A DNA stretch of 64,000 nt, taken from an uncultured Bacilli bacterium. Its GTDB lineage: Bacteria; Bacillota_I; Bacilli_A; RF39; UBA660. The translations under genes were made by a program, and so were the position numbers. The stretch lies in the NCBI GenBank assembly GCA_934129885.1, contig CAKOWU010000002.1, forward strand, positions 76,070-140,069, written 5' to 3'. The notes beneath the pieces are model-generated. The model was given only the letters and a program-made list of their open reading frames with translations. It was not told the origin of the DNA and did not search any database. Positions 2,033-60,588 of the stretch are shown here, in pieces; the first letter of the stretch is position 1; each line of letters begins with the position of its first letter.

Positions 2033-3773
2033 ATCTTATCTTTATATGAACTTCTCTAAGTTGTTGTTCTGAAACAGTACTAGGAGAACCCATCATATTA
2101 TCAATACCTAAAGTATTAGGTGGGAATGCTTGTACTTCTCTTAAATTTTTCTCATCACGTAATAACATAAGCATTCTATCTATTCCAGGAGCCATACCGG
2201 CATGTGGAGGAACTCCATACTTAAATGCTGTATAAAGTGATTTAAATTTTTCTTTAACAATATCTTCTGTATAGCCTACTTCCTTAAATCCGTGCATTAA
2301 ACTATCTAAATCATGGTTACGTACAGCACCTGAACTCATTTCAAAGCCATTACATACAAAGTCATATTGATAAGCAAGTATATCTTTTATATCGCCATTA
2401 TATGCGTTCATACCACCTTGTGGCATACTAAATGGATTATGTCCAAAATCCCATTTATTTTCTTCTTCGTTCCACTCAAACATAGGCATATCATTAATAA
2501 TACAAAATTCGTATTTATTAGGATCTATTAATTCTAACTTTTTACCTAACTCTGTTCTTATTTGACCGGCGTAATTTGCCGCGACTGATTCTTTTCTGTT
2601 AGCGATAAAGAATATAACATCTCCTTTTGAAAGTTCTGCCTTACTAATTAGTGCTTTTCTCTCATCATCAGATAGAAATTTATCAATAGGGCCTTTAAAG
2701 GTATTATCGCCTAAAACAGATATATATCCAATACCAGGCATACCAATTGAAGATGCGAAATCTACTATTTCATTAAACCAACTATTAGATTTATCTGCGA
2801 TGCCTTCTACTTTTATACCTCTAACAATGGACTTTTGAAAAGGTTTAAATGTAGTATTCGCAAATTCTTCTGTTAAATCTATTATCAAAAGGGGATTTCT
2901 TAAATCTGGTTTATCAGTACCATATTTAAGCATTGCCTCTTTATATGGTATTCTTTTAAATGGTCTTTCTGAAACTTCTTTTGATGAAAAATGTTTGAAA
3001 GTATCGTAAAATATTTCTTCACCTATTTTATAAACATCTTCTTCAGTTGCGAAAGCCATTTCAAAATCTAACTGGTAAAACTCAAGGGTTCTATCAGCAC
3101 GAGAGTCTTCATCTCTAAAGCAAGGTGCGATTTGATAATACTTATCAAAGCCCCCTACCATAAGTAACTCCTTGAATATTTGTGGAGCCTGCGGTAAAGC
3201 ATAAAACTGACCTTTATACTTTCTAGATGGAACTAGAAAATCTCTAGCACCCTCTGGAGATGAAGCTGTTAAAATAGGTGTTTGAACTTCAGTAAAACCT
3301 AAACTATCCATTTTATTTCTTAAATATTTTAATAGTTCACTTCTAAACTTAATATTATCATGTACTCTATTGTTTCTCATATCTAAATAGCGATACTTAA
3401 GTCTTAATTCTTCATTTACTTTAGTGCTTGTTTTTATCTCAAATGGTAATTCATGTAAAGACTTGCCAAGTAGTGTAAACTCTTTAATAAGTATCTCTAC
3501 TGTACCAGATTTAATTTTTGGATTAAAGTTTTCTTCATCACGCATTCTAACAACGCCCTCTAAAGAAATAGTAGATTCTTTAGCAAGCCCATTAAATATA
3601 GAATCATCGTTACTTACTATTTGAACAGTACCAGTTTCGTCTCTTAAATCTACAAATATAACTCCGCCATGATCTCTAATGTTTTCTACCCAGCCTGCGA
3701 CCTTTACAGTTTTACCAAGAACGTCCTCAGTAATTTCACCGGGTCTTATATTTCTATATATATTATCCATCAT
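2031..3773 (-). CDS. aspS: Aspartate--tRNA ligase, probably non-discriminating given linkage to gatCAB and tRNA-Asn
   Basis: 580 aa with class II aaRS motifs (FRDED..R, GGMAPGIDR-like GMAPGIDRMLML) and an OB-fold N-terminus. Confidence 0.95.
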   Translation of the reverse strand: MMDNIYRNIRPGEITEDVLGKTVKVAGWVENIRDHGGVIFVDLRDETGTVQIVSNDDSIFNGLAKESTISLEGVVRMRDEENFNPKIKSGTVEILIKEFTLLGKSLHELPFEIKTSTKVNEELRLKYRYLDMRNNRVHDNIKFRSELLKYLRNKMDSLGFTEVQTPILTASSPEGARDFLVPSRKYKGQFYALPQAPQIFKELLMVGGFDKYYQIAPCFRDEDSRADRTLEFYQLDFEMAFATEEDVYKIGEEIFYDTFKHFSSKEVSERPFKRIPYKEAMLKYGTDKPDLRNPLLIIDLTEEFANTTFKPFQKSIVRGIKVEGIADKSNSWFNEIVDFASSIGMPGIGYISVLGDNTFKGPIDKFLSDDERKALISKAELSKGDVIFFIANRKESVAANYAGQIRTELGKKLELIDPNKYEFCIINDMPMFEWNEEENKWDFGHNPFSMPQGGMNAYNGDIKDILAYQYDFVCNGFEMSSGAVRNHDLDSLMHGFKEVGYTEDIVKEKFKSLYTAFKYGVPPHAGMAPGIDRMLMLLRDEKNLREVQAFPPNTLGIDNMMGSPSTVSEQQLREVHIKIR

Positions 3774-3774
3774 C

Positions 3775-5229
3775 TCACCTCTTCTCTATTTCTTCTAGCA
3801 TAGTCTCACGTGCCATACTAGGATTAGCCTTTCCTTTAGTCTTTTTCATAATTTGACCTACTAAATAATCAGCAACATTATTTTTACCAGATTTATATTT
3901 TTCTACTAACTCTGGATTTTCATCTAATACCTCGTTAGCAACTTTCACAATCGCAGTCTTATCAGTTATCTGCATCATGCCTTTTTCTTTGACTATTGCC
4001 TCTGGTACCTTACCTTCTGCCATACAAATTGCAAAAACTTCTTTGGCTTGTTTTGAAGATATAACCTTATCTTCTACAAGTTTAATAAGTTGACATAAGT
4101 GGGCAGGTGTCATTAAAGCATCAGAAATAGTCTTATTTTCTTTATTAAGAGTACCAAGTATATTAGTTGTGATCCAGTTAGAAGCACTCTTAGGATTAGC
4201 ATCTAAACTAATAGCCTCTTCAAAGAAATCAGACACATCTTTTTCCTTAACTAATATAGTGGCATCATAATCAGTTAAACCATATTCTTCTATATATAAC
4301 TTCTTTCTTTCTGAAGCAAGCATAGGAATTTCTTCCTTAATCTCTTCTATCCATTCTTTAGATAATCTAACCTTTGGAATATTTGGCTCTACAAAATATT
4401 TATAATCAATGGCGTCTGCCTTACTACGCATAAACTTTGTACTCATAGAATCTTCATCCCATCTACGAGTTTGTTGTTCCATAGAATCGTATTCACCAGT
4501 CTCTTTTAGATCGGTTTGTCTTTCTATTTCATAGTTAATAGCGTCTCTAACACCACCGAAAGAATTGACATTCTTAATCTCAATTTTAGTACCCCAGTTA
4601 CTTGGGTCATTCTCATCAAGTGAGGCATCCATGATAGACACATTAACATCACATCTAATTTGTCCTTTTTTACTATCAGCCTCACTTATACCAGCATACT
4701 GATATATACTTCTCATGGTTTCTAGGAATGCGACTGCCTCATCAGCACTTCTAAAACAAGGAGTTGTAACAAGTTCAAGTAATGGAACGCCCGCTCTATT
4801 ATAATCAATCTTTGATACATCACCAGTATGAACTGAAGATGCAGCATCTTCTTCTAAATGCAAATTATCAATGATAGCTTCTTTTTCTTCGCCATTACAT
4901 TCAAATTTTAATTTACCATATATTCCAACTGGTATAGGTTTAGTTTCCTGCGTAATTTGAAAGCCTTTAGGTAAATCTGGATAGTAATAGTTTTTTCTTT
5001 CAAAATACATATATTCTGGTTGTGTGCATTTTAATATTAAACTTGCCATAACTGCTTTTTTTACGGCTTCTTTATTAACTACTGGTAAAGTACCAGGAAA
5101 AGCCATATCAACTGGTCTAATATTAACATTCGCACTTTCATTATAATCATTCGCCGCAGATGAAAATACTTTAGTATTAGTTTCACTTATCTCACAGTGC
5201 ATTTCAAGTCCAATTAATGCCTTATACAT
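3775..5229 (-). CDS. gatB: Asp/Glu-tRNA amidotransferase subunit B
   Basis: 484 aa with the typical GatB N-terminus (IGLEMHCE...) and a C-terminal YqeY-like tail. Confidence 0.95.
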   Translation of the reverse strand: MYKALIGLEMHCEISETNTKVFSSAANDYNESANVNIRPVDMAFPGTLPVVNKEAVKKAVMASLILKCTQPEYMYFERKNYYYPDLPKGFQITQETKPIPVGIYGKLKFECNGEEKEAIIDNLHLEEDAASSVHTGDVSKIDYNRAGVPLLELVTTPCFRSADEAVAFLETMRSIYQYAGISEADSKKGQIRCDVNVSIMDASLDENDPSNWGTKIEIKNVNSFGGVRDAINYEIERQTDLKETGEYDSMEQQTRRWDEDSMSTKFMRSKADAIDYKYFVEPNIPKVRLSKEWIEEIKEEIPMLASERKKLYIEEYGLTDYDATILVKEKDVSDFFEEAISLDANPKSASNWITTNILGTLNKENKTISDALMTPAHLCQLIKLVEDKVISSKQAKEVFAICMAEGKVPEAIVKEKGMMQITDKTAIVKVANEVLDENPELVEKYKSGKNNVADYLVGQIMKKTKGKANPSMARETMLEEIEKR

Positions 5230-6686
5230 TATTTCACCTCCATGGCTGTTTGCCCTTTATAGTCCATACTGCTTTCTAAAGCATAAGCAATATTTAAAAC
5301 ATTTACGTCGTCATAGCATTTTCCTGTTATATTAAGTCCTACTGGAAGATTATTTACAAAACCATCAGGTATAGTAATTGATGGGAAACCGCCAAAGTTT
5401 CCTATTTGTAGATGATCCTCTAAAGCATTTATATTTTTATCTTCACTGCTGAAGGAATAATCTATATCTTTCGCAGGTCCAGTACTTACAGGAAGAATAA
5501 TGCCATCATATTCTTTAAAAAGTTCGTTCCATCTATCCACTAAAAGTCTTCTAACTCTTTGAGCATTATGGAAATATCTGTCCTTGTTCTCTGACTGTAG
5601 AACATAAGAACCAATTACAAATCTTCTTTTAATGAGTGAAGAAAAGCCTTCGGTACGATATTTTTTCATAGACTCATCCCATGTCTTACCTTCTGCTCTA
5701 GGTCCAAAGATAAAACCAGTTAAATTGCTCATATTTGATGTTGCCTCTGCGCATGATATAACAACATAAACTGATGGCTCTGCGTCGAGTAGTTTTCTAT
5801 CTACTGATACGCCTTCAACCTCAATACCTAATTTCTCACATAACTTTAACTTGTCTTTAAAGTTTTCTAAATGCATCTTTAATTCATCATCAGCATTAGG
5901 ATAGTTTTCTATATCACACAACTCTTTAATGTAACATAACTTTTTACCTTTAACGTTTCCATCTATACTATCATATAAATTAATATCAGATGAATCCCAA
6001 GAAGTCATATCATATTTATCGATACCTTTCATACCATCTACTACAATAGCGGCATCCTTTACACTTCTAGTTAAAGCCCCACAGTGATCTAAACTACTAG
6101 CAAAAGGAAATAAGCCATATCTTGATATCATACCATATGTAGGTTTATAACCAACTATACCGCAGTATGCCGCAGGCTTTCTAATAGAATCTCCAGTATC
6201 ACTACCTGTCGCATATGGAATAACTCCAGCCGCAACTGCTGCTGCACTTCCTGAAGAAGAACCAGCACACATTTTAGATGTATCCCATGGATTTAAAATC
6301 TTACCAGTATGTGCCGTAGTACCAGTACCGCCCATGCCAAATTCATCCATCGCTGTCTTAGATACTAGTGTAGCACCATGTTTTGATAAATTTTCTATTG
6401 CTGTAGCACTAAAAAATGGAACGTAATTTTTTAAAGTATTTGAAGAACCTGTTGAAAGAATACCTTTGGTACTATAATTATCTTTTGCGGCATAAGGAAT
6501 ACCAGATAATAAATCATCAGTAACTTTCTTTTCTTCTACGTCATCTAAAATAGTAACAAAAGCATTACATTTTTTTTGTAATTCTTTAGACTTTTCTATA
6601 GCCTCTTTAATAAGTTCTTTACTTGTTACTTTGTTTTCTTTTAAATCATTATGTATTTGTTCAATACTTTTATCCATATATGACAT
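5229..6686 (-). CDS. gatA: Asp/Glu-tRNA amidotransferase subunit A (amidase signature)
   Basis: Amidase signature GGSSSGSAAAVAAG. Likely start is MSYMDKS at 6686, just after the gatC stop. Confidence 0.95.
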   Translation of the reverse strand: MSYMDKSIEQIHNDLKENKVTSKELIKEAIEKSKELQKKCNAFVTILDDVEEKKVTDDLLSGIPYAAKDNYSTKGILSTGSSNTLKNYVPFFSATAIENLSKHGATLVSKTAMDEFGMGGTGTTAHTGKILNPWDTSKMCAGSSSGSAAAVAAGVIPYATGSDTGDSIRKPAAYCGIVGYKPTYGMISRYGLFPFASSLDHCGALTRSVKDAAIVVDGMKGIDKYDMTSWDSSDINLYDSIDGNVKGKKLCYIKELCDIENYPNADDELKMHLENFKDKLKLCEKLGIEVEGVSVDRKLLDAEPSVYVVISCAEATSNMSNLTGFIFGPRAEGKTWDESMKKYRTEGFSSLIKRRFVIGSYVLQSENKDRYFHNAQRVRRLLVDRWNELFKEYDGIILPVSTGPAKDIDYSFSSEDKNINALEDHLQIGNFGGFPSITIPDGFVNNLPVGLNITGKCYDDVNVLNIAYALESSMDYKGQTAMEVK

Positions 6687-6687
6687 A

Positions 6688-6984
6688 TTATCCCACCATC
6701 CTTGGTACAACTACGGCATCTCCATCACTATCACCGCAGTTAGCAAATATTTCTTCTTTTGATATTGACTCTTCTTTTACATCTTCTCTAAATGTACACT
6801 CAAAATCATCTAATGCATGAGTCATTGGAACAATATCACTAATATCATCTATCTCATTTATTCTAGCAATACTAGCGTCTATTTCCTCAAATTCATCAAG
6901 CACTTTTTTATTTTCTTCTTCTGTAAGACCAATTAATAACTTATCTGCATAGTCATCAACCATTTCTTTAGTAAACTTTCCCAT
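6688..6984 (-). CDS. gatC: Asp/Glu-tRNA amidotransferase subunit C
   Basis: 98 aa, sits upstream of gatA, has a GGAGG RBS. Confidence 0.9.
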   Translation of the reverse strand: MGKFTKEMVDDYADKLLIGLTEEENKKVLDEFEEIDASIARINEIDDISDIVPMTHALDDFECTFREDVKEESISKEEIFANCGDSDGDAVVVPRMVG

Positions 6985-42425: not shown

Positions 42426-43901
42426 TTAAATCACAATTGCGAATAAATTTCCAGAACCTTTATTAACAAGTTTAGATAAAGTCTGTTGTAACTTAAATCT
42501 AACAGCCTCTGGCATTAATGAAAGTTTTGCCTGTATACCCTCCTGAACGATAACATCTAGACTTCTACCAAAGATTTCACTTTTCCAAATATTGTTAGAA
42601 TCACTCTCTTTTCCTTTCATTAAATGGTCAATAAGTTCTTTACTTTGGATTTCGGAACCAATAATTGGTTCAAAAGTACTTTCTACATCTACTCTAATCA
42701 TATGAATAGATGGGGCGACTGCTTTTAATTTAATACCGTATCTACTACCTTGTTTTAAAATTTCTGGTGTATCAAGCGACATATCATTAAGAGTAGGACT
42801 TGCGACACCATAGCCAGTAGTTTTGACCATTTTTAAGGCATCTTTAATTTGATCATATTCACATTTTGCTTCGTTATATTCTTGGAACAATGATAGAAGT
42901 TGTGAACGATTGGTAATATCGACACCAATAATTTCTTTAAGAACTTCATTATATAAGTCATCTGGAGCTTTTAACGTAACATTAACTTCACCTGTTGAAG
43001 TATCAACGTTAGATAAGTAAGCCTGTCTAATATACTCGCATTCTTCTAATTTTTCAGTGATAACATCAATATCTCTAAGTTTATCAATTTCACATATACT
43101 ATCTCTGATTGTATCAATATATGCTTTCTTAAGCCAGTTATTAGGCGCTAGTGTAGCAATCCAGTCTGGCATATCGACATTAATCCTAACAACTGGGAAC
43201 TCATATAAGGCTTCTCTTAAAATGTTGTATGCGTCTCTTTCACTCATATTGTCAACATTCATTGGAATAACTGGCACATTATAACATTCTCTAAGCGAGG
43301 CCGCTAAATTTTCGGTCTCTGGTAACATTGGATGTGTACTATTTAATATAACAATATATGGCTTACCAATTTCACTAAGTTCGTCTGCGATTCTTTGTTC
43401 TGCAGGGGCATAACACTCTCTGTTAAACTCTCCGATAGAACCGTCAGAAGTTATTAAAACGCCAATACTAGAGTGGTCTTTAATAACTTTTTCAGTCCCT
43501 ATTTCAGCTGCTTCAACAAATGGAATTTCCTCCTCATACCATGGTGTGCGCACCATTCTAGGACCGTTTTCATCCTCATATCCTTTGGCTCCGTCAATTA
43601 CATATCCGACGCAGTCTACTAGGCGCACATTAGCACTAAAGTCATCAATATTGATTTTGGCGGCGTTACTAGGTACAAATTTAGGTTCTGTAGTCATGAT
43701 GGTCTTACCTTGTGCAGATTGAGGAATTTCATCAAGTGTCCTCTTTCTTTCGTATTCATCTAAGATATTAGGTACAACTAAATTTTCTAAAAATCTTTTG
43801 ATAAATGTACTTTTACCAGTTCTTACAGCTCCAACTACGCCAAGATAAATATCACCGCCAGTTCTTTCTGTAATACTTTTAATAATATCTATTTTTTCCA
43901 T
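42426..43901 (-). CDS. spoIVA: Stage IV sporulation protein A
   Basis: 491 aa. N-terminus ERTGGDIYLGVVGAVRTGKSTFIK is near-identical to Bacillus SpoIVA. Confidence 0.95.
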   Translation of the reverse strand: MEKIDIIKSITERTGGDIYLGVVGAVRTGKSTFIKRFLENLVVPNILDEYERKRTLDEIPQSAQGKTIMTTEPKFVPSNAAKINIDDFSANVRLVDCVGYVIDGAKGYEDENGPRMVRTPWYEEEIPFVEAAEIGTEKVIKDHSSIGVLITSDGSIGEFNRECYAPAEQRIADELSEIGKPYIVILNSTHPMLPETENLAASLRECYNVPVIPMNVDNMSERDAYNILREALYEFPVVRINVDMPDWIATLAPNNWLKKAYIDTIRDSICEIDKLRDIDVITEKLEECEYIRQAYLSNVDTSTGEVNVTLKAPDDLYNEVLKEIIGVDITNRSQLLSLFQEYNEAKCEYDQIKDALKMVKTTGYGVASPTLNDMSLDTPEILKQGSRYGIKLKAVAPSIHMIRVDVESTFEPIIGSEIQSKELIDHLMKGKESDSNNIWKSEIFGRSLDVIVQEGIQAKLSLMPEAVRFKLQQTLSKLVNKGSGNLFAIVI

Positions 43902-44396: not shown

Positions 44397-44639
44397 TTAT
44401 ATTAATTTGTCAATATCATTTGGGACTTTGTCATTAACAACTGCATTTACAATTTTATCTTCTTTATCTTTAGAAACAACTCTACCTGTCATCTGACCAA
44501 GTTCTTGAATAACCTCTCTTAAAGTATTTTCATTCTTTAAATCATTTTGTTGTAATTTTTGGGCTAAATCTAAAATAGTTTGTTTCCCAACATTTGTCTT
44601 CTTTTCAACTCTATCGAAAAAACCATCTGAAAAACGCAT
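44397..44639 (-). CDS. Stage VI sporulation protein F-like (YjcC/SpoVIF family)
   Basis: FFDRVEKKTNVGKQTILDLAQKLQ resembles Bacillus SpoVIF FFKKLEKKTGV... Confidence 0.65.
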   Translation of the reverse strand: MRFSDGFFDRVEKKTNVGKQTILDLAQKLQQNDLKNENTLREVIQELGQMTGRVVSKDKEDKIVNAVVNDKVPNDIDKLI

Positions 44640-48154: not shown

Positions 48155-48231
48155 GGGGAATTAGCTCAGTTGGCTAGAGCACCTGCTTTGCACGCAGGGG
48201 GTCAAGGGTTCGAGTCCCTTATTCTCCACCA
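48155..48231 (+). tRNA. tRNA-Ala (UGC) with G3:U70 and encoded CCA
   Basis: Acceptor GGGGAAU/AUUCUCC, anticodon loop CUUUGCA. Promoter TTGCAT-17-TGcTATAAT lies just upstream (48114-48141). Confidence 0.9.
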
Positions 48232-48282
48232 ATATGTTTATTAAAACCTTGATAATTCAAGGTTTTTCTTTATTTATAAGGG
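48216..48282 (+). repeat. Direct repeat (attL-like): last 16 nt of tRNA-Ala plus its terminator
   Basis: 67/67 identical to 56038..56104. Confidence 0.9.
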
Positions 48283-48330
48283 CTTTTGTTTTACAATATC
48301 ACATTTATATCACATTTTCTAAATTTCATT

Positions 48331-48360: not shown

Positions 48361-49578
48361 TTATCTTTTTATTCTTGGTATATCACTATTTTGGTATGGG
48401 AATTGTTCTAAATTTATTATATGCTCTGTTGGTTTTTCTATATATTCTACTATATTCGGTCGTTGAGAATAACTATCAAATTCTTTGCTTAAAGACATTA
48501 TATCTTCATCGGTAAATCCATAATTTGAAAAATCCGGTCTTTCTTGTAAACTAATAGTAGCTTCCATAAATGTTTTAATATTATCTATTCCTCTTTTTTT
48601 ATCTATACTTATTTGCTTATAAAATCCATACGCTATTAAACCAGATTCCACTTCTAATAGCTGTTTCATTGTTTGAAAGCTAATATGTTCTTTAACATTT
48701 TCCACAGATAAATCATTATACGCAGAAATACCTTTACTGCGCACCAAATCCAATTTTATTTGTAATAAGGTCATATTAGCAAGTGATTTTAAATAATCAT
48801 TTTTTTTCATTCTTAATTTTTGTACTTCTTTCTTATCAAAACCTTGTTTTTCTAGATAATCTATAAATAAGTAATCAATGGTATATGTAGGAACTTCATG
48901 AAAACCGTAATATGTTTCACTAGGAAGTTTCTTTTTAGAATAAAAATCTACACTATGCATTATCTCGTGATTTAAAATTTGGTAATCAAATATTGTATTT
49001 TCTCTGGCTACTGAACAATAAGCTTCATCAAATACATGATCATAGATAGTTAAGCCACCATAATTTTCAAATTCACCCAATTGTCCTTCTCTAATATGTA
49101 ATAGTTCAGGGTTATCCAAAGTTTTTAAAGCTCTTTCTTTAATATCATTATCATCTAATTCAGTATAAAATTTTTTAGACATATCTATTAACTCTTTATC
49201 AGAAATTTCCATTTTAGTAAATGTAATTTCTCCAGTATTGCCATCAGCGATATTTTGAGCTAAATCTAATAAAAATTGTAAATAGGCACCGTCTACGTAA
49301 TCGCCTTTATTTTGTACTAATTCATATTCTAATTTTGCGTATTTTTCTTCTTTTGTAAGTTTTAGTTTGCCATTTGTTACTTTTTGTAAAACGTTTTTTA
49401 AATTAGAAGCAAATTTTGATACTCCTGTTTGTAATAGACAAACATATCCAATTAGGCTCATTTCCAATTCTTCTTTTTCTTTATCAGTTAAATTAACACA
49501 TTTTAACCTATCTAAAACATATTTTTTCTTTTTTCTAATAGAACTTAAATTCCAATTATAATTACTCATATAAATCAA
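48361..49578 (-). CDS. HExxH gluzincin-type metallopeptidase-like protein
   Basis: NHEIMHSVDF with Glu 20 residues after the second His (GFHEVPT), matching thermolysin-like spacing. Otherwise helical. Confidence 0.5.
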   Translation of the reverse strand: MIYMSNYNWNLSSIRKKKKYVLDRLKCVNLTDKEKEELEMSLIGYVCLLQTGVSKFASNLKNVLQKVTNGKLKLTKEEKYAKLEYELVQNKGDYVDGAYLQFLLDLAQNIADGNTGEITFTKMEISDKELIDMSKKFYTELDDNDIKERALKTLDNPELLHIREGQLGEFENYGGLTIYDHVFDEAYCSVARENTIFDYQILNHEIMHSVDFYSKKKLPSETYYGFHEVPTYTIDYLFIDYLEKQGFDKKEVQKLRMKKNDYLKSLANMTLLQIKLDLVRSKGISAYNDLSVENVKEHISFQTMKQLLEVESGLIAYGFYKQISIDKKRGIDNIKTFMEATISLQERPDFSNYGFTDEDIMSLSKEFDSYSQRPNIVEYIEKPTEHIINLEQFPYQNSDIPRIKR

Positions 49579-49636
49579 ATCCTTTAATCAAACTCATTTT
49601 GTAAAATTCTTGATATGATATATTATTTAAAGCAAT

Positions 49637-50040
49637 TTACCTTGTGTTTGCTCTATTATTTATTATATTGTTAGAAATTAAATATTTCGAGTAATCTTGC
49701 TCGTATATAGAAATATAATCCGATAACATACTCTCATAAAAATTTTCAATAAAAGTTACACATTTATTAGATAAATTATTATAATTATTAATAACATATT
49801 TTATCACATTATCTGAAGTAGGAGTTCCTGTTTTTAAAATACTTGCTAACTCTGTTAATTTGTCATTAAGTATTGTATCTTCATTGACATTGTTTGTTTT
49901 TTAATCTTTAATATTAATCCATCATTTTCTAAAAAACTTAATACATTTTTATTTAAATTTTGCCTAGTCATATCATCTATATATGAATTATTAAGACAAT
50001 TTTTAATCTGTTCTTTCAAATTATCATTATCAGTTTTAAA
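49637..50040 (-). pseudogene. Frameshifted small helical-protein gene
   Basis: Two adjacent frames (..LENDGLILKIKKQ and NEDTILNDKLTELASIL...NNRANTR*) join at an A-run near 49893-49900. No ORF of 60 aa or more appears in the track. Confidence 0.4.
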
Positions 50041-50051
50041 ATACTTATTTA

Positions 50052-50453
50052 TTAAAGAATTAAAAACATAATACCAATTTTGGTATAAGAGCCTCCTAAT
50101 CCGAAATAATCTAAAGAAAGATATGGTTTATATTCTAATATAAAGTCTAGTAACGTTTTTTGATTTTCGTCATCAATAATTAAATCTAAATCAAATTCAT
50201 TAATTTCTAGTTTATTTATGCGATTACTAAAAAATTTAATAACATTTGGTGTGTTATTAATTAATTTCTTGTCATTAAAACAATTATGATAATTTTCAAA
50301 TATATTTTTATTTTCTTCTATAATTTTTAAATAATCTTGAACTAATTTTTTTAATTTTGGTCCTAATTCTTCTTGTCTTTTTTTTAACACATCATTATAC
50401 CCATTATTAATTACATTTGCTATTTGGATTTTGTAATCTTTTATCATAAGCAC
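50052..50453 (-). CDS. Hypothetical protein
   Basis: 133-aa ORF in the island operon. Confidence 0.5.
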   Translation of the reverse strand: MLMIKDYKIQIANVINNGYNDVLKKRQEELGPKLKKLVQDYLKIIEENKNIFENYHNCFNDKKLINNTPNVIKFFSNRINKLEINEFDLDLIIDDENQKTLLDFILEYKPYLSLDYFGLGGSYTKIGIMFLIL

Positions 50454-50469
50454 CTCTTAATACATGAAA

Positions 50470-51195
50470 TTATCTAACATTACCTTTTTGTCTTTCAACT
50501 AAATAATTACCATTTTGATATGCAGGTAATAATTCCGCTGTCCCGTCATTATGTCTTAAATATACTTTTGGAAAGGTATAAAACCCCTCATAAGTAGGAT
50601 TATTTTCATACATAATAAAATTAAAATCGTTACTTGGAGGCATTAACATAGCCATAGTTTCTACTTGTTTATTTTTAAATAGTGGATGAAGATTATTAAA
50701 TTGTACATATGAAATTAAATCGCCAAAAGAAAAATTATCACTTACAGGAGAAATTCCATGTGTATGTCCATGACATATAACTTGCTTATTACCATTATCA
50801 TATTCTCCCTGTTCAATGCCTCTTACATATTCATTTAAAGATGAATTAATTCCATCAAAGGAAGCAGAAGTTCTACCACTAGGTTGATATGTTGAAATAA
50901 CTGTATCTAGCCACACCGTTCCGTTTGGCTTTTCTTCACCAAACATTAAATAGGCAATTTCTTCATTTGTTTGACTTGTAATGTTTCTTATTTTAAGTAG
51001 TTCTTGATATGCTTCTTCGGTTATAACTATATTATTACTAGCATTTACATTTCCCATTTTTACTGGAGAAATAGGTGTGTTTTCTGAATCTCCATAATTA
51101 TATGTTTCAAAAAGACTAGCGTAAAAATCGGCATTTGGGTTATTGTCACCCAATAATATATCAATTGTTTTATTTCTCGCTTCTTCTCTATTCAT
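50470..51195 (-). CDS. JAB/MPN (JAMM)-like metalloprotease
   Basis: Upstream Glu (EIAYLMFGEE), then HGHTHG-x-SPVSDNFSFGD, which fits H-x-H-x(7-9)-S-x-x-D. Confidence 0.55.
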   Translation of the reverse strand: MNREEARNKTIDILLGDNNPNADFYASLFETYNYGDSENTPISPVKMGNVNASNNIVITEEAYQELLKIRNITSQTNEEIAYLMFGEEKPNGTVWLDTVISTYQPSGRTSASFDGINSSLNEYVRGIEQGEYDNGNKQVICHGHTHGISPVSDNFSFGDLISYVQFNNLHPLFKNKQVETMAMLMPPSNDFNFIMYENNPTYEGFYTFPKVYLRHNDGTAELLPAYQNGNYLVERQKGNVR

Positions 51196-51317
51196 TTATC
51201 TAATACCTCTCTTAATTTCACTTTCTGATATTCTGTATCACCCTTATAATAAATTATATAATCATTTCTCATTAAATTCAATATCAAATATATTATAATT
51301 ATTATTACATAGTATAA

Positions 51318-52364
51318 CTATATTGTTTTTATTCTTCTATTAATTAGACTTAAAGCAACTTGTAAAGTTTCTTCACTCTGACACTCAATATCAGGTTTTG
51401 TGTTAAAATATCCTTCATATTGTATTTTTCCTTCTGGATTTATTGGAGCTTCAGTAGGAAACCATAGTCCCATATTTCTACCTATAATTTTCCACTCATG
51501 TTTATATTTATCACTTTGTTTTCCATTATAAACACCACTGGTTAATTGTATATTAAAAGGAGTAAATCCTCCTCCTTCACCTAGAGTTGATTCACCAATT
51601 ATGGTAGCATAACCTGTTTGCTTACAAAATTTAGCCAATGTTTCAGAAGTTGAAAACACTTCATTATTAATAAGTAAGTATTTATTATAATGTTTTACAT
51701 TATTGCCTTGAGGAATAGGATTCCACGTAAAATCAAGTTCTTTTTTCAAGAATAAGTCATATAATCTATCATGAAAATCTAAATTTTCATCAGTAAAACA
51801 ACTAAAATGTTTAAAATATGCATCACTTCCGCCTCCATTAGATCTTATATCAATAATGATATTATTAATTTCATTATTATCTAAGTAATTTTTTAAATTT
51901 TTAAATATATATTCATCTTCTTCAATAAAAGTATTATTAAATGATTTTATTTTAATAATAGCGCTGTCATTTATAAAGCTAATTTCCGCATTATTATTTT
52001 TAAATTCTTCACGCGCATCTTCACTTTTCTGTTTTTTTTCTTCCAAATCATTTTCCAAGTCGTCATATTCCATAGGGCCTATTGCCACATGGTCATTGGA
52101 TATTTTTTCAATTAAGTTATCGTTTATAAAATCGATAAAATCATCATCTGAAAAAACGGTTTGTCTAACTTTTAATTTTAATTCTTTTAAATAGTTATCA
52201 TTTAAAAAATTATTACCTTTCCAGTCCAAATAATATTTTTGACTTGTTTCTATAAGTTTATAAATAAACTCTAGTTTAGATACATAATTATCCAATCTTT
52301 TATATTGTTCTTGTATTTCAAGTTCTTTTTTTTCTCGCTCTTTCATTATTTGTTCAATATTCAT
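51318..52364 (-). CDS. S41 (C-terminal processing peptidase)-like protein with an N-terminal coiled coil
   Basis: IIIDIRSNGGGS and LLINNEVFSTSETLAKF...IIGESTLGEGG align to the S41 DLRxNxGG and SASASE...TFGKG motifs. Confidence 0.6.
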   Translation of the reverse strand: MNIEQIMKEREKKELEIQEQYKRLDNYVSKLEFIYKLIETSQKYYLDWKGNNFLNDNYLKELKLKVRQTVFSDDDFIDFINDNLIEKISNDHVAIGPMEYDDLENDLEEKKQKSEDAREEFKNNNAEISFINDSAIIKIKSFNNTFIEEDEYIFKNLKNYLDNNEINNIIIDIRSNGGGSDAYFKHFSCFTDENLDFHDRLYDLFLKKELDFTWNPIPQGNNVKHYNKYLLINNEVFSTSETLAKFCKQTGYATIIGESTLGEGGGFTPFNIQLTSGVYNGKQSDKYKHEWKIIGRNMGLWFPTEAPINPEGKIQYEGYFNTKPDIECQSEETLQVALSLINRRIKTI

Positions 52365-52387: not shown

Positions 52388-53392
52388 TTACATACTACCA
52401 ATTTTCCTGCCTTCACTTACTTGAATATTTTGTGTTAATAAATGTTCCGGCACTGCTCCTGTTTTTTCATATTGCTTTAATTCTTCTAAACTCATTTTCT
52501 GTAATAATTGATCTCGTCTTGCTGCTTCTTCATTTATATTGTTGTTCTGCCAGCTTTGACCATCTACTGAATTTTGATGACTTAATATAGTTTGTGCTTG
52601 ATTAACTAATTCTTGCGTTTGAGGTGATAACTGTGGTTGCTGTGGTACTTCTACATATTCAATTATAATATCATCTTCAGCCTTTTGTCTAGTTTGTTCC
52701 ACTACATTTTGAATAACTTCTTGACTTTGTTTTTCTAGTTGTATTATCGTCCCATAAAAAGATTTTGCCGACATAATTGTAGAATTTCTATTTTGATTTA
52801 TTAATGTTGATACATTACTTTTTAACATTTGCTCAGCATTTTCTTTTTCTACTAATATTATCCGTTTTAACTCTTCAACTGCTTGCGAATTACTATATAC
52901 ACCATTTGTAGTTATAACACTTCTAAATAAATCAGTAAATTGGGCGGATAGATCTATTCTATTTGCATATAATTCCTGTAAAGTTTGTAGTTTACTATCA
53001 CTTTTATTTATGCCTTTTTCAATCATATTATTTTTCTCTTCAGTAGTTTTATCTTCTGCTTGACTTTTACTTGTTATTGTTCTAATCATAGCTTCATTTA
53101 TTTTATCAAAATTTTGATAATTTTCTGCCACAAAACTTTGATGTGTTTTTCGCATTTCACTAATAGCAATATTATCTACATAGTACTCAATATCATTTCT
53201 ACTACTCGAAAAACCATAATGATCTAAAACCGCAGTCATAGAATTAATTAATCTTTGTCGAATGATGCTTAAATCACCACTATTTTTTTCCAAACTTTGA
53301 TTACTAAATTTCCTTAAATTTTCTGTCATTTTACTTTTTAAAGTAATTTCCATATCTTTAAACTGCTCAATAGGTATTGCCATATCTACCAT
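52388..53392 (-). CDS. Coiled-coil, Gln-rich hypothetical protein
   Basis: 334-aa ORF, helical and low-complexity. Confidence 0.5.
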   Translation of the reverse strand: MVDMAIPIEQFKDMEITLKSKMTENLRKFSNQSLEKNSGDLSIIRQRLINSMTAVLDHYGFSSSRNDIEYYVDNIAISEMRKTHQSFVAENYQNFDKINEAMIRTITSKSQAEDKTTEEKNNMIEKGINKSDSKLQTLQELYANRIDLSAQFTDLFRSVITTNGVYSNSQAVEELKRIILVEKENAEQMLKSNVSTLINQNRNSTIMSAKSFYGTIIQLEKQSQEVIQNVVEQTRQKAEDDIIIEYVEVPQQPQLSPQTQELVNQAQTILSHQNSVDGQSWQNNNINEEAARRDQLLQKMSLEELKQYEKTGAVPEHLLTQNIQVSEGRKIGSM

Positions 53393-53442: not shown

Positions 53443-53757
53443 CTATGCTAGCAAATTAATATATAAAGCCATAAAACCACTTAACAATAAACAAAATGCT
53501 AAAAGAATTGTAGTGATAGTTGTTTTAGTATTATTAACTTTCTTTGCAAGTGGATGTTTATCAAGAGTTTTTTGCCAACCTTTTTCTTGTGTATTTGATT
53601 TTTCTAAGGTTTTAGAATTTTGTAATGTACTTATAGATTGTCCATTTTCTAAAGCTTCTAATTGTTCAAAATTCATATTTAATAAATCCTCATAAGAATA
53701 CTTATTACCATAGTTATCTTGAAAGAAAGTTTTTTTACTTGTTTGAAAATCATTCAT
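53443..53757 (-). CDS. Tail-anchored small membrane protein
   Basis: 104 aa with a single C-terminal TM helix. The start overlaps the upstream gene. Confidence 0.5.
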   Translation of the reverse strand: MNDFQTSKKTFFQDNYGNKYSYEDLLNMNFEQLEALENGQSISTLQNSKTLEKSNTQEKGWQKTLDKHPLAKKVNNTKTTITTILLAFCLLLSGFMALYINLLA

Positions 53758-54577
53758 AATAAACCTCCAAAATTTTTATCTTAATTGCTTTTTGTATTAT
53801 CTGATCGTTTAATTCTTCAATTTTATCATCCAATAATTTAAGCAAATCATTAGATGGAGTAGTATTAATTTCTTCTCTTGAAGCCACATTGTTAATACTA
53901 TTTAAAGTAACTCCAGCCATTATTTTATCTATTTCACTAGTATTAGGATTATTTATAATATCTTGAACTTTTTGAGTTTTATCTTCTCTTTTTTCTTTAG
54001 TCATATTTGGAGTTCCATCTAATCTTGAATATTCTACTTCTGCAGTTATTTTATCTAATTCACTACTTTTTGAACTTTTTTGTATATTATTCCAGTATTT
54101 TTCTTTTTCTTCTTCAGTTTTATGGATTGAATATTGATTTTTTTCTTGATTGTTTGTTAAGTATACTTTCCCTAATATACTTAATTTTAATGGTGTTAAT
54201 TCATGCATACAAGTTAACGCTTTTAAAAGATCCATGTGAATATCTTTTAACAATATCATTTCATTATTTAACATTGCTATTATGTCCTCAGTTAATTTAG
54301 AACTAAACTTGTTTACTAGTTTACTATCAATATAATAAATGTTATCATTGATTGTTCTAGCCTGAAACTGTAGCCATTCTCTAAGATTTTGTTTTTGCTT
54401 TTCCACTTCCAGCCATTGATTAGGCTCAGCTTTATAAAAACTTATTAATTTGTTTTTATACTGTTTGATTACTTTATTTCTTAGTTTTATTAATTTTTTA
54501 TAATCTAAATTTTTAATATCTGACATTGTTTCTTCATTTAGAAGTTTTTTGCTTTTTCTTTCACTTAATATTTTCAT
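53750..54577 (-). CDS. Hypothetical helical protein with an internal duplicated SE(L/I)DKI(T/M)A motif
   Basis: 275-aa ORF. Confidence 0.5.
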   Translation of the reverse strand: MKILSERKSKKLLNEETMSDIKNLDYKKLIKLRNKVIKQYKNKLISFYKAEPNQWLEVEKQKQNLREWLQFQARTINDNIYYIDSKLVNKFSSKLTEDIIAMLNNEMILLKDIHMDLLKALTCMHELTPLKLSILGKVYLTNNQEKNQYSIHKTEEEKEKYWNNIQKSSKSSELDKITAEVEYSRLDGTPNMTKEKREDKTQKVQDIINNPNTSEIDKIMAGVTLNSINNVASREEINTTPSNDLLKLLDDKIEELNDQIIQKAIKIKILEVYYE

Positions 54578-54677: not shown

Positions 54678-55382
54678 TTATTCTCCAAAAATATCTTTTA
54701 ATGGATTATAATTATCGTCTAAAGATTTGATGATATGTGAATATTCTTCTTTAATTATGCGAGGTACTGAATTAAGAGTTAAAGCAATGGCTTCAAAATC
54801 AAATAAGAATTTATCATCTACCTCATCATGTTTAGCATAAATTGGAGCATATACATTATTTACTACATCATTCTCATCAAATTTTAACCCACCATATTCA
54901 GCAACAAACTTTCTGTTCAATTCTACTTCTTTTTTAGATCTTTCAATTTTTTTGCTAATTTTTTCGGTATATTCTTTAACAGTATCACTATATTGATTAT
55001 CAAATTCGGACTCTAACGGCTTGATTTTTTCTTCAACATCCGCTTTCATAAATTCATTCTTTTTAACACCAACAGAAATAGCTACGGCAAAATCCGAATT
55101 TTTTGTATTACATTCGTCATATAATCTTTTATAATCGTATCTTTTTTGCTCTAATATTTTTTGTATTCTTTCAACTTCAGATAAATATGTGTCAAGCCCT
55201 TTTTGAAAACTTTCAGGTGAAAGCATTTTTTTGATATTTTTTCTAAAACTATATTCAGCCTCATATACTTCATCAGCAAGTTGTAAATATTGTTCAGTTT
55301 CTTTAGAATACCTTTCCATAATATCTTTTACATCAGAATTATGTTTCTCAATTAATTCATTCACTATTATCTCCTCCTTCAA
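54678..55382 (-). CDS. Hypothetical helical protein (first gene of the island operon)
   Basis: 234-aa ORF divergent from the XRE gene. Confidence 0.5.
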   Translation of the reverse strand: MKEEIIVNELIEKHNSDVKDIMERYSKETEQYLQLADEVYEAEYSFRKNIKKMLSPESFQKGLDTYLSEVERIQKILEQKRYDYKRLYDECNTKNSDFAVAISVGVKKNEFMKADVEEKIKPLESEFDNQYSDTVKEYTEKISKKIERSKKEVELNRKFVAEYGGLKFDENDVVNNVYAPIYAKHDEVDDKFLFDFEAIALTLNSVPRIIKEEYSHIIKSLDDNYNPLKDIFGE

Positions 55383-55563
55383 AATAAAATGAATATAATA
55401 AAATTTTAAGAAAAATATACCTTTTTCTACATAAATCTACTTATATTGTAACATAAATATTTTTATTTTTTGCATAAAATATATAATTTTACGCATATTT
55501 ACATAAGCAATATCACTATAATTGATTTTCAATAAATGTAAAATTGTATATAGGAGAAGATTT

Positions 55564-55899
55564 ATGAAAAATAATTTAAAAGAAATTAGAAACAGTAAAA
55601 ACTTATTGCAAACTAAAGTTGCAATGGATTTAAATATAACTCAAGAAACAATAAGCTCTTATGAAACGGGACGCGTTTTTCCTAGCTCAGATATGCTTAT
55701 AAAATTAGCCAATTATTATAATACTTCCATTGATTATTTACTGTGTCGCACTAAATATAATATGCCAATCAATACTATTAAACCAAATAATATATCTGAT
55801 GATGATTTTATTTTATTAAATAAAATAAATAAATTATCTTCACAAAATAGAGTAAAAGTTGAAGCCTATATTGAAGGATTAAATGATAGCTCCAACTAA
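55564..55899 (+). CDS. XRE-family helix-turn-helix regulator
   Basis: LLQTKVAMDLNITQETISSYETGRVFPS HTH region. TAGGAGAAG RBS before the ATG at 55564. Confidence 0.8.
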   Translation: MKNNLKEIRNSKNLLQTKVAMDLNITQETISSYETGRVFPSSDMLIKLANYYNTSIDYLLCRTKYNMPINTIKPNNISDDDFILLNKINKLSSQNRVKVEAYIEGLNDSSN

Positions 55900-56037: not shown

Positions 56038-56104
56038 CCCTTATTCTCCACCAATATGTTTATTAAAACCTTGATAATTCAAGGTTTTTCTTTATTTATA
56101 AGGG
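56038..56104 (+). repeat. Direct repeat (attR-like)
   Basis: 67/67 identical to 48216..48282. Confidence 0.9.
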
Positions 56105-56484
56105 TTTTGTCATATTTTGTTTTTTTGTGGGCTACACCAAAATATATTACTTTCCTATCTATCATTTTATTATTAAAAGTAATTTATCACTCATCATATT
56201 ATCGCCATATATAATAAATTCATTTTCACCACCGTGCATAGACATACCAACTACCACCCCAATAATCAGCAGCAACAATTGACAAATGAAGTTACCTTTA
56301 TAATTTATAAGAACATTAAATGATTTTTTCAATGTGTAGCCCAAACATTTAAGATATCTTGGTAAAAATAAAATTTAAAATGTTGATGTTTATCAAAAAA
56401 AGTAATAACACAACTTATAGATAAGTATGAGAAATCAAAATCATTGCTATAATATCACTTATTAATTTAAAGGAGGAGATTAAT

Positions 56485-60147: not shown

Positions 60148-60588
60148 ATGTGTAACAATAACACGAATGAATGCCGATGCATATCAGAAATCCTAACAGT
60201 TATCAATATCTTGCAAGATAATGCACAATGTGCGGATACTTGTTTAGATACTTGCGATAGAGGGTTTTTAGGCTGCTCAGTATCAACAGTAGGCTGCAAC
60301 ACTAGACCTATAATGCTATATATAGGTGCTGGTAATGGTACACCATGGCAAATGCCTACTACTAAAACAAATGCTGTCTGTGGTAATGATGGGGCAACAT
60401 GTTCAAATGTATTTAGAGTAGAAAAAGTAGATGGTTGTTGTGCTACGTTTAGAGTTCTTGGAGAAAATCCTGATTCAGAAGAAGCTGAAACAATACCATA
60501 TGTCGCAACAAATACATTTTTTACAATGAATTTAAATTGTGTATGCTGCTGCAGATGTTTACAAGATACATATGTAGAAGGCGTTTAA
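60148..60588 (+). CDS. CotY/CotZ-family cysteine-rich spore coat/exosporium protein
   Basis: VFRVEKVDGCCATFRVL resembles Bacillus CotZ FFRVERVHGSCATLSLL. About 19 Cys, including CVCCCRC. Confidence 0.75.
   Translation: MCNNNTNECRCISEILTVINILQDNAQCADTCLDTCDRGFLGCSVSTVGCNTRPIMLYIGAGNGTPWQMPTTKTNAVCGNDGATCSNVFRVEKVDGCCATFRVLGENPDSEEAETIPYVATNTFFTMNLNCVCCCRCLQDTYVEGV

Follow-up and report, generated by a model that had tools for sequence, protein, structure and literature searches.

Three predicted peptidase-fold proteins on a tRNA-associated island of an uncultured gut Bacilli bacterium: probable mosaic cargo rather than a fixed system

Background

Bacterial JAB (JAMM/MPN+) peptidases occur as components of CBASS, Bil and Bub systems, in which BubC, Cap3 and BilC are always accompanied by E1, E2 or ubiquitin-like (Ubl) protein genes, and JAB deconjugases antagonize Ubl conjugation in CBASS and Bil systems. 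Such peptidases have come to be read almost automatically as signs of Ubl-conjugation immunity (CBASS, Bil, Bub) or as RadC. Here we describe a predicted JAB peptidase gene from a different setting, namely a 64,000-nucleotide (nt) stretch of DNA, hereafter the window, from an uncultured Bacilli bacterium (RF39; UBA660; assembly GCA_934129885.1, contig CAKOWU010000002.1, positions 76,070 to 140,069). In this window the gene shares an operon with genes for an S41-like protein and an HExxH metallopeptidase-like protein, on an island inserted at a tRNA-Ala gene.

An earlier note on this DNA had drawn attention to these three genes as a combination that fits no named system. We find that they are not a fixed tripartite machine. 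The explanation that we prefer, with somewhat better than even confidence, is that they are mixed modules carried as mobile-element cargo on a tRNA-inserted island. The anatomy and evolution of the locus are well supported; its function we infer.

Results

The three genes lie within 4 kb on the minus strand, as the earlier note had it and the open reading frame (ORF) list of the window bears out. They code for an S41-fold protein of 348 amino acids (aa; 51318..52364), a JAB metallopeptidase of 241 aa (50470..51195) and an HExxH protein whose ORF spans 48361-49578 and whose likely start, an ATG at 49569, gives a gene at 48361..49569 and a product of 402 aa, here called the M3-like protein. All three products are predicted to be cytoplasmic. 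Profile scans of the six-frame ORFs of the first 134 loci that were fetched recovered JAB only in 23 loci, the M3-like protein only in 19 and the S41 profile only in 84, most of the last being distant S41 proteins. JAB and the M3-like protein came together in 1 of the 134, locus L043, with a distant JAB homologue that keeps all catalytic residues, and the trio was found in no fetched locus from other genomes or strains. Each gene also has homologues that turn up by themselves in unrelated contexts, and of the three a conspecific strain has kept just the M3-like gene at this tRNA. Thus the trio is not a conserved system, and the earlier note's view of the combination as one, which it had tied to co-conservation elsewhere, largely has to be given up. 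The S41 gene is an addition confined to the window island. Literature searches found no publication on this gene combination.

What does recur is a pool of neighbors. A total lack of shared neighbors, indicated by BLASTP across 17 JAB loci, was overturned by phmmer clustering that included the M3-like loci and exposed a shared pool of protein families (F11, F12, F14, F6 and F9) together with the L043 cluster. F11, the family of the first operon gene (234 aa, 54678..55382, minus strand), has members in L044 (phmmer E-value 1.1e-81) and L043 (4.2e-49) that align at 40-59% identity. F12, the family of a 334-aa protein rich in Lys, Glu, Asn and Gln and predicted to be soluble (52388..53392, minus strand), has members in L043 (3.6e-14) and L051 (6.8e-10); these homologues are ~600 aa long, lie in clusters that contain an M3-like gene, and are followed in both loci by a protein resembling the 104-aa tail-anchored type of the window operon. 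In L044, too, F11 comes first, beside a divergently transcribed XRE gene, and this locus is a compact version of the window island, with XRE divergent from F11, a 304-aa protein gene, F14 and the M3-like gene. The L043 cluster comprises an extracytoplasmic function (ECF) sigma factor, F11, the distant JAB, a NUDIX protein, F12, a tail-anchored protein, an ABC exporter, the M3-like gene and XRE. F14, F6, F9, NUDIX, the ABC exporter and XRE connect the JAB loci with the M3-like loci. Links of the S41 gene to the pool through F38 and F39, a GH25 muramidase and a surface protein, were judged uninformative by inspection of the sequences alone.

Several of these clusters code for further zincin-like proteins. 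F14 (HELTH ... TEGATQ) is conserved in L001, L006 and L044, and F22 (HELFH ... NEGYTE) is found in L001, L022 and L023 as the second gene upstream of JAB, with the 63-aa F6 ORF in between; L015 combines a Peptidase_M9/MA_2 protein with JAB. Since such extra genes are common in the clusters, sets of two or three different peptidase-type genes recur: F14 with the M3-like protein in L044 and L006, F14, F22 and JAB in L001, and F22 with JAB in L022 and L023. The recurrent theme is therefore a mobile-element cluster with JAB and some zincin, or with two zincins, and not the particular trio of the window. A Mob_Pre (MobV) relaxase gene precedes the L051 cluster (2.3e-30), a VirD4-type coupling protein gene follows that of L044 (8.5e-21), and large serine recombinases close L001, L044 and L051, so that relatives of the window cluster carry relaxase, coupling-protein or serine-recombinase genes as integrative mobilizable elements do. 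The peptidases are modules from a gene pool common to integrative and mobilizable elements of uncultured, spore-forming gut Bacilli.

The island itself is delimited by two 71-nt direct repeats recovered by a repeat search, an attL-like copy at 48216..48286 and an attR-like copy at 56038..56108, which are identical at 70 of 71 positions and spaced by 7822 nt; they give the label "island", which the earlier note had used, its boundaries. The left repeat begins with the last 16 nt of a tRNA-Ala gene (anticodon UGC; 48155..48231, plus strand; ARAGORN), the integration target, and continues into a terminator-like hairpin; a terminator scan found the same hairpin twice, in both repeats. The resulting 7.8-kb island contains only an XRE gene and the operon between its repeats. 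Integrase, excisionase, relaxase and replication families gave no match to the island proteins in Pfam, PHROGs and NCBIfam, and no integrase remnant came to light when the window was searched by tblastn with three recombinases of related loci. In its repeats with the tRNA 3' end, its strain-variable site and its divergent XRE-type repressor gene beside a cargo operon, the island resembles tRNA-integrated islands and integrative mobilizable elements of Bacillota; unlike typical integrative elements, it lacks integrase, excisionase, relaxase and replication genes. As it has no mobility genes of its own, it is a remnant left by decay or else relies on functions provided in trans.

Comparison of related genomes and strains shows the same tRNA-Ala in at least three occupant states within the species. 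Loci L149-L151 and L153-L155 were assigned to the same species by an identical EngB/YsxC protein and flanks 98.4% identical; the closest genome in the species collection, L035, is uninformative, its contig being N-scaffolded just upstream of a Tam41-like gene. The window island is also present in L149-L151 and L155. L154 (285-6637) instead has genes for a 174-aa and a 120-aa protein, an ABC exporter and the M3-like protein, then AbiEii, and has no JAB or S41 gene, whereas in L153 (7443-8909) phage holin and amidase genes adjoin the tRNA. The related genomes keep the synteny of the genes flanking the island. In L037 and L039 the site is empty, with the flanking genes 530-600 bp from the tRNA-Ala, and in L036 it is occupied by a different 4.7-kb element with a tyrosine integrase. 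That element (2142-6968) also contains a helix-turn-helix (HTH) gene and a 97-aa ORF for a putative excisionase, and a 17-nt repeat of the tRNA end forms its boundary. The DNA shared by the window and L154 islands is 90.6% identical and confined to the M3-like gene, the homology starting exactly at the stop codon of a 56-aa ORF; the M3-like gene is therefore an exchangeable module. We conclude that the tRNA-Ala(UGC) site is a strain-variable integration hotspot with modular occupants, and that the window island is cargo on a decayed or trans-dependent integrative element in this hotspot, under a predicted XRE repressor.

The JAB protein went unrecognized by Pfam (including the JAB, Prok-JAB and RadC models), NCBIfam, PHROGs and PADLOC, and single-sequence searches of the PDB returned no match. 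Its AlphaFold model (pLDDT 89.5, pTM 0.87), in contrast, gave 164 Foldseek matches in the PDB at E-values of at most 1e-3 with probability 1.0. The top 50 listed are all JAMM/MPN proteins, led by Citrobacter BubCD (9ea4, 4e-7), Rpn11 (4e-6), CSN5 and BRCC36. Among viral models in BFVD, MPN/JAB phage proteins match at ~1e-6, whereas RadC-labelled proteins match weakly (0.06-0.7), and the Pfam RadC model gives no match at an E-value of 1 or below. Across 19 homologues, with identities as low as 43%, there is no variation at E79 (within EIAYLMFG, where JAMM proteins have their Glu), H144, S156 or D159, and at least 90% keep H146; the motif is spaced H-x-H-x9-S-x-x-D. These features confirm the JAMM/MPN-like assignment of the earlier note and mark the protein, on its model, as a genuine JAMM peptidase, probably active, from a small family without a Pfam model and with a two-helix N-terminal extension. 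The family comprises 75 homologues at 90% clustering, all from uncultured Bacilli, and an exhaustive profile search of 1.84 billion representative proteins returned 136 representative clusters at E-values of at most 1e-3. No Pfam domain was found in its longer, multi-domain members. Elsewhere the JAB gene lies beside tRNAs, beside recombinases, or in the context comEA-comEC ... tdk.

The protein shares the MPN fold and the complete Glu...His-x-His...Ser-x-x-Asp motif with BubC, Cap3 and BilC. It differs from the JAB components of type II CBASS (Cap2/Cap3), Bil and Bub in that the operon contains no E1, E2 or Ubl gene: searches with Pfam, NCBIfam and PADLOC found no ThiF/E1, UBC/E2, Ubl or DUF6527 domain in the 10 island proteins. 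The earlier note's statement that no such partner and no named system is visible thus holds at the level of hidden Markov models (HMMs; Pfam, NCBIfam, PHROGs, PADLOC). Small proteins encoded just upstream of JAB genes elsewhere (63, 94, 99 and 135 aa) were considered as Ubl candidates and rejected, as they have no terminal GG; among the small proteins checked beside JAB genes, a GLGG followed by a tail occurs only in the 133-aa ORF of the window (50052..50453, minus strand). This ORF, just downstream of the JAB gene, ends in ...DYFGLGG and a 12-residue hydrophobic tail, a C-terminus resembling that of Ubl-type pre-proteins; no homologue was found in any fetched locus and no family match in Pfam, NCBIfam, PHROGs or PADLOC. 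The 63-aa ORF encodes a Cys-rich, zinc-ribbon-like domain. Cys-rich ORFs of 63-73 aa lie directly upstream of the JAB gene in L001 (5093-5284), L022 (4304-4492) and L147 (212-430), and a 330-aa protein of L001 ends in the same domain. The distant JAB members P0249, P0255, P0261, P0282 and P0305 have long, low-complexity C-terminal extensions, with an I-N-E/K-Y/F-G-E-I motif common to P0249, P0255 and P0282; P0305 is a 1253-aa Cys-rich protein with a C-terminal JAB domain and a putative N-terminal signal or membrane segment. Hydrophobic, tail-anchor-like extensions at the C-termini of the JAB homologue P0058 and the S41-like homologue P0200 hint that some members of these families may act at the cytoplasmic face of the membrane.

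In the 402-aa M3-like protein the predicted zinc motif is H201-E202-x-x-H205 with E225 as third ligand; HEIMH and the Glu 20 residues past its second His (GFHEVPTYTIDY) are invariant in 20 homologues. This part of the earlier note's description stands, and its likening of the protein to thermolysin does not. Foldseek searches with the AlphaFold (AF2) model (pLDDT 84.6) recovered Bacillus anthracis oligoendopeptidase F, Pz-peptidase A and Geobacillus PepF at E-values of 5e-7 to 3e-5 (3sks 4.8e-7, 3ahm 1e-5, 2h1n 2.6e-5), then, more weakly, ACE (M2) and M32 enzymes that share the neurolysin/ACE-type fold, and no thermolysin-like (M4) entry occurs among the 50 matches listed. Oligoendopeptidase F and Pz-peptidase A share with it the neurolysin-type gluzincin fold and the HExxH with a downstream Glu in an "HEV" helix. 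The differences are in size and spacing. It is ~380-400 residues long (367-402 aa across the family), as against ~565-600 in M3B enzymes, the full-length form with its N-terminal domain reaching ~600 aa; the TM-score is ~0.5 of the query and 0.37 of the target; and the His-to-Glu spacing is 20, where M3 enzymes have ~24-25. The Pfam Peptidase_M3 and NCBIfam PepF models give no match. The model thus points to a compact M3B, oligoendopeptidase-F-like gluzincin. Its gene occurs after xseB among housekeeping genes, after a gene pair for an ECF-type sigma factor and a 230-aa partner, and beside an ABC exporter; an IMG/VR scan and tblastn against PLSDB were negative.

The S41-type fold claimed for the third protein is confirmed by a match to Pfam PF03572 over residues 135-277 (E-value 3.9e-16, 59.5 bits against a cutoff of 24). 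It shares with CtpA, CtpB and Tsp the S41 core, the DIRxNGGG loop and the Ser-x-x-Glu nucleophile motif; the loop and Ser238 of FSTSE, which pairs with the Ser of SASASE in an alignment with CtpB, are invariant in a subfamily alignment of 14 sequences. The S41 label needs qualification in that the canonical Ser/Lys dyad of those enzymes is absent: Glu263 sits where the FGKG of CtpB has its catalytic general-base Lys, and the position is Glu or Asp across the whole subfamily. Further, no PDZ domain was detected by Pfam, nor an N-terminal hydrophobic segment or signal peptide by hydropathy. Searching the PDB with the subfamily profile placed IRBP modules and the uncharacterized Bacteroides protein 4ghn best among solved structures, with Ctp/Tsp enzymes lower. 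IRBP modules are non-catalytic S41 homologues. His92 is nearly invariant in the subfamily and could form a Ser-His pair with Ser238, as in tricorn and CPAF, which use Ser-His-Glu. The subfamily is small, with 14 relatives at 43% identity or more; members at 43-67% stand alone in their genomes, and an IMG/VR scan gave one match at 29% identity.

The 4 kb containing the three genes are the distal half of a run of co-directional minus-strand ORFs from 55382 down to 48361, in the 5' to 3' order 234, 275, 104 and 334 aa, S41-like, JAB, 133 aa, two small ORFs and the M3-like gene. All ten being on one strand, with gaps of at most 122 bp and with no terminator-like site found inside the run by a consensus terminator scan, a single transcription unit is plausible. 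Divergent from it lies a gene for an XRE/Cro-CI-type HTH regulator (55522..55899, plus strand; Pfam HTH_3 7.7e-14, NCBIfam RstR-family repressor 8.5e-17, PHROG 8 1.4e-22), likely the repressor of the operon. The four upstream products had been described as helical or membrane proteins. Hydropathy shows a hydrophobic segment only in the 104-aa protein (53443..53757, minus strand), a C-terminal one at residues 78-104 of tail-anchored type; the other three, including the 275-aa protein (53750..54577, minus strand), are predicted to be soluble and are rich in Lys, Glu, Asn and Gln. No relatives of the 275-aa protein were found in Pfam, NCBIfam, PHROGs or PADLOC or by phmmer against the fetched loci, profile searches with the F11 and F12 alignments matched no PDB sequence, and an IMG/VR scan with the 334-aa protein was negative. 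None of the ORFs described as helical matched any model in Pfam, NCBIfam, PHROGs or PADLOC, as was also the case for the M3-like protein.

The two small ORFs, of 54 aa (49855-50019) and 56 aa (49637-49807), both on the minus strand, agree with the earlier observation of a frameshifted small gene. The frame of the downstream ORF is open for 26 codons further upstream, up to an A6 run where the frame of the upstream ORF continues, and the pair (49637..50019) looks like one ~127-aa gene split by a 1-nt frameshift at this run; joining the two needs 1 nt added there. A pseudogene, a phase-variable tract and a sequencing error are all conceivable explanations. Gene callers called no gene at 49637-50019 in identical contigs from other samples, which therefore share the frameshifted state. 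No homologues of either ORF were found.

Outside the island, a gene for a CotZ-like Cys-rich spore-coat protein (60148-60588; Pfam 3.7e-13), a SpoVIF-like gene (44397-44639) and an intact spoIVA (42426-43901) mark the host as a spore-forming member of the uncultured gut Bacilli. Some strains and relatives have a spoIVA that is cut short or divided (L150 13223-20582, L039 15742-20606, L151 10293-11778). Behind the break, L150 and L039 contain an insertion, with XRE, Macro-domain, ADP-ribosylglycohydrolase and resolvase genes in the former and XRE and ADP-ribosylglycohydrolase genes in the latter; these inserts recall skin-like elements that interrupt a sporulation gene.

Discussion

Taken as mosaic cargo of an integrative element, the explanation that we rank first, the operon would most likely serve proteolysis in conflict between the element and its host or a phage. 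The XRE protein would keep the operon silent, and upon derepression its products would supply cytoplasmic proteolysis for the element in conflict or establishment. The JAB protein would free some protein of a tail that is C-terminal or attached by an isopeptide bond; the M3-like enzyme, like others of the PepF type, would be restricted to short peptides; and the S41-like protein would be either a peptidase of the Ser-His type or a binding module without catalytic activity. Several observations weigh against cargo of this kind. The island contains neither integrase nor relaxase, so that its mobility is read from the repeats and the site polymorphism alone, and low G+C does not mark its right side. 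The zincin-like families F14 and F22 were assigned from their motifs only, and the M3-like gene is also found downstream of xseB in a housekeeping setting. The main clade of JAB is often in the chromosomal comEC ... tdk context, and searches of viral contigs in IMG/VR, of plasmids in PLSDB and of phages in GenBank found no member of the family; for these reasons JAB may be a lineage-specific chromosomal gene and not element cargo.

A more specific proposal, which we regard as unlikely but worth stating, is that the locus represents an undescribed proteolysis-only module of mobile elements, in which a stand-alone JAMM peptidase lacking E1, E2 and Ubl partners and one or more zincins, here joined by an S41-type protein, would cleave specific proteins of the host, of phages or of rival elements in defense or counter-defense. 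In one form of it JAB may remove the 12-residue tail after the GLGG of the 133-aa protein or may strip Ubl-type conjugates of an immune system, and in either case the M3-like enzyme would then clear the released peptides. Slightly less likely is a dedicated anti-phage defense system: under XRE control, the operon would sense infection and use its peptidases to kill or arrest the cell or to destroy phage proteins, while the coiled-coil and membrane proteins would serve as sensors or effectors. The membership of JAB peptidases in CBASS, Bil and Bub, the divergent XRE gene, which resembles the regulator layout of many defense operons, and a hotspot where conspecific strains hold an AbiEii toxin island or phage lysis genes would all be in keeping with such a role. 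The gene set is, however, not conserved as a unit, each peptidase family is also found alone, and the HMM libraries revealed neither E1, E2 or Ubl proteins nor a nuclease, an NTPase or any other of the usual effectors. No operon protein matches a system model of PADLOC-DB v2: beyond generic HTH matches to the regulator, in which the capH (1.3e-5) and RmrA models match the HTH domain only, there are just weak coiled-coil matches to the 234-aa protein (E-values of at least 6e-4), which we regard as noise. The regulators ImmR of ICEBs1 and CapH of CBASS likewise are XRE-family HTH proteins beside operons with zinc metallopeptidases, but their peptidase partners, ImmA and CapP, are encoded adjacent to them, whereas the window peptidases lie 4-7 kb from the regulator and match neither the ImmA/IrrE (M78) nor the CapP models.

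Conversely, the peptidases could form an anti-defense or establishment module of a mobilizable element, inactivating host immune proteins on entry, with JAB stripping the Ubl conjugates of type II CBASS, Bil or Bub and the zincins acting like the ArdC metalloprotease. Conjugative elements and phages often carry zincin domains for counter-defense, as in ArdC and polyvalent proteins. The placement of related clusters directly beside the MobV relaxase (L051) or coupling protein (L044), the recurrence in them of several different zincins with JAB, and the ability of JAB deconjugases to counter Ubl conjugation in CBASS and Bil all point this way. Nevertheless, the window island has no transfer genes, its operon is repressor-controlled and not obviously early, and JAB relatives are missing from the phage and plasmid collections searched; we regard this as doubtful, slightly more so than a defense role. 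Less probable again is the processing or turnover of a bacteriocin, toxin or signaling peptide, with the peptidases maturing or degrading a small product under sigma-factor or XRE control and, in relatives, an adjacent ABC transporter exporting it. Enzymes of all three families have termini or short peptides as their targets. An ABC exporter gene lies directly beside the M3-like gene in L031/L154, L042, L043 and L053, an ECF-type sigma factor is encoded upstream in L006, L043, L049 and L051, and the window operon has small ORFs, a tail-anchored protein and the GG with 12-aa tail of the 133-aa ORF; against this, the window island has no ABC exporter and no recognizable precursor or modification enzymes, the three peptidases have no signal peptides, and the small ORFs are not conserved. 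Finally, single homologues of each gene among housekeeping genes in other metagenome-assembled genomes might suggest ordinary housekeeping peptidases that are chance neighbors in a region that is no island at all. This is highly improbable and already contradicted by the 71-nt direct repeats that include the tRNA 3' end, by the empty site in relatives and by the different occupants of the same site in conspecific strains.

Conclusions

In contrast to the usual association of bacterial JAB peptidases with Ubl conjugation or RadC, we describe a JAB family, predicted to be catalytically intact, that is without a Pfam model, confined to uncultured gut Bacilli and without Ubl partners, and that is accompanied by varying zincins at a tRNA hotspot whose occupants differ between strains. 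Should the peptidase sets indeed turn out to function in conflict, the biology of mobile elements in this little-studied portion of the gut microbiota would be extended by a mechanism that relies on proteolysis alone. Otherwise, the analysis still provides an annotation of three divergent subfamilies, namely a branch of S41 in which the catalytic Lys is missing, a compact M3B group and a new JAB clade, and defines an integration hotspot in these bacteria.

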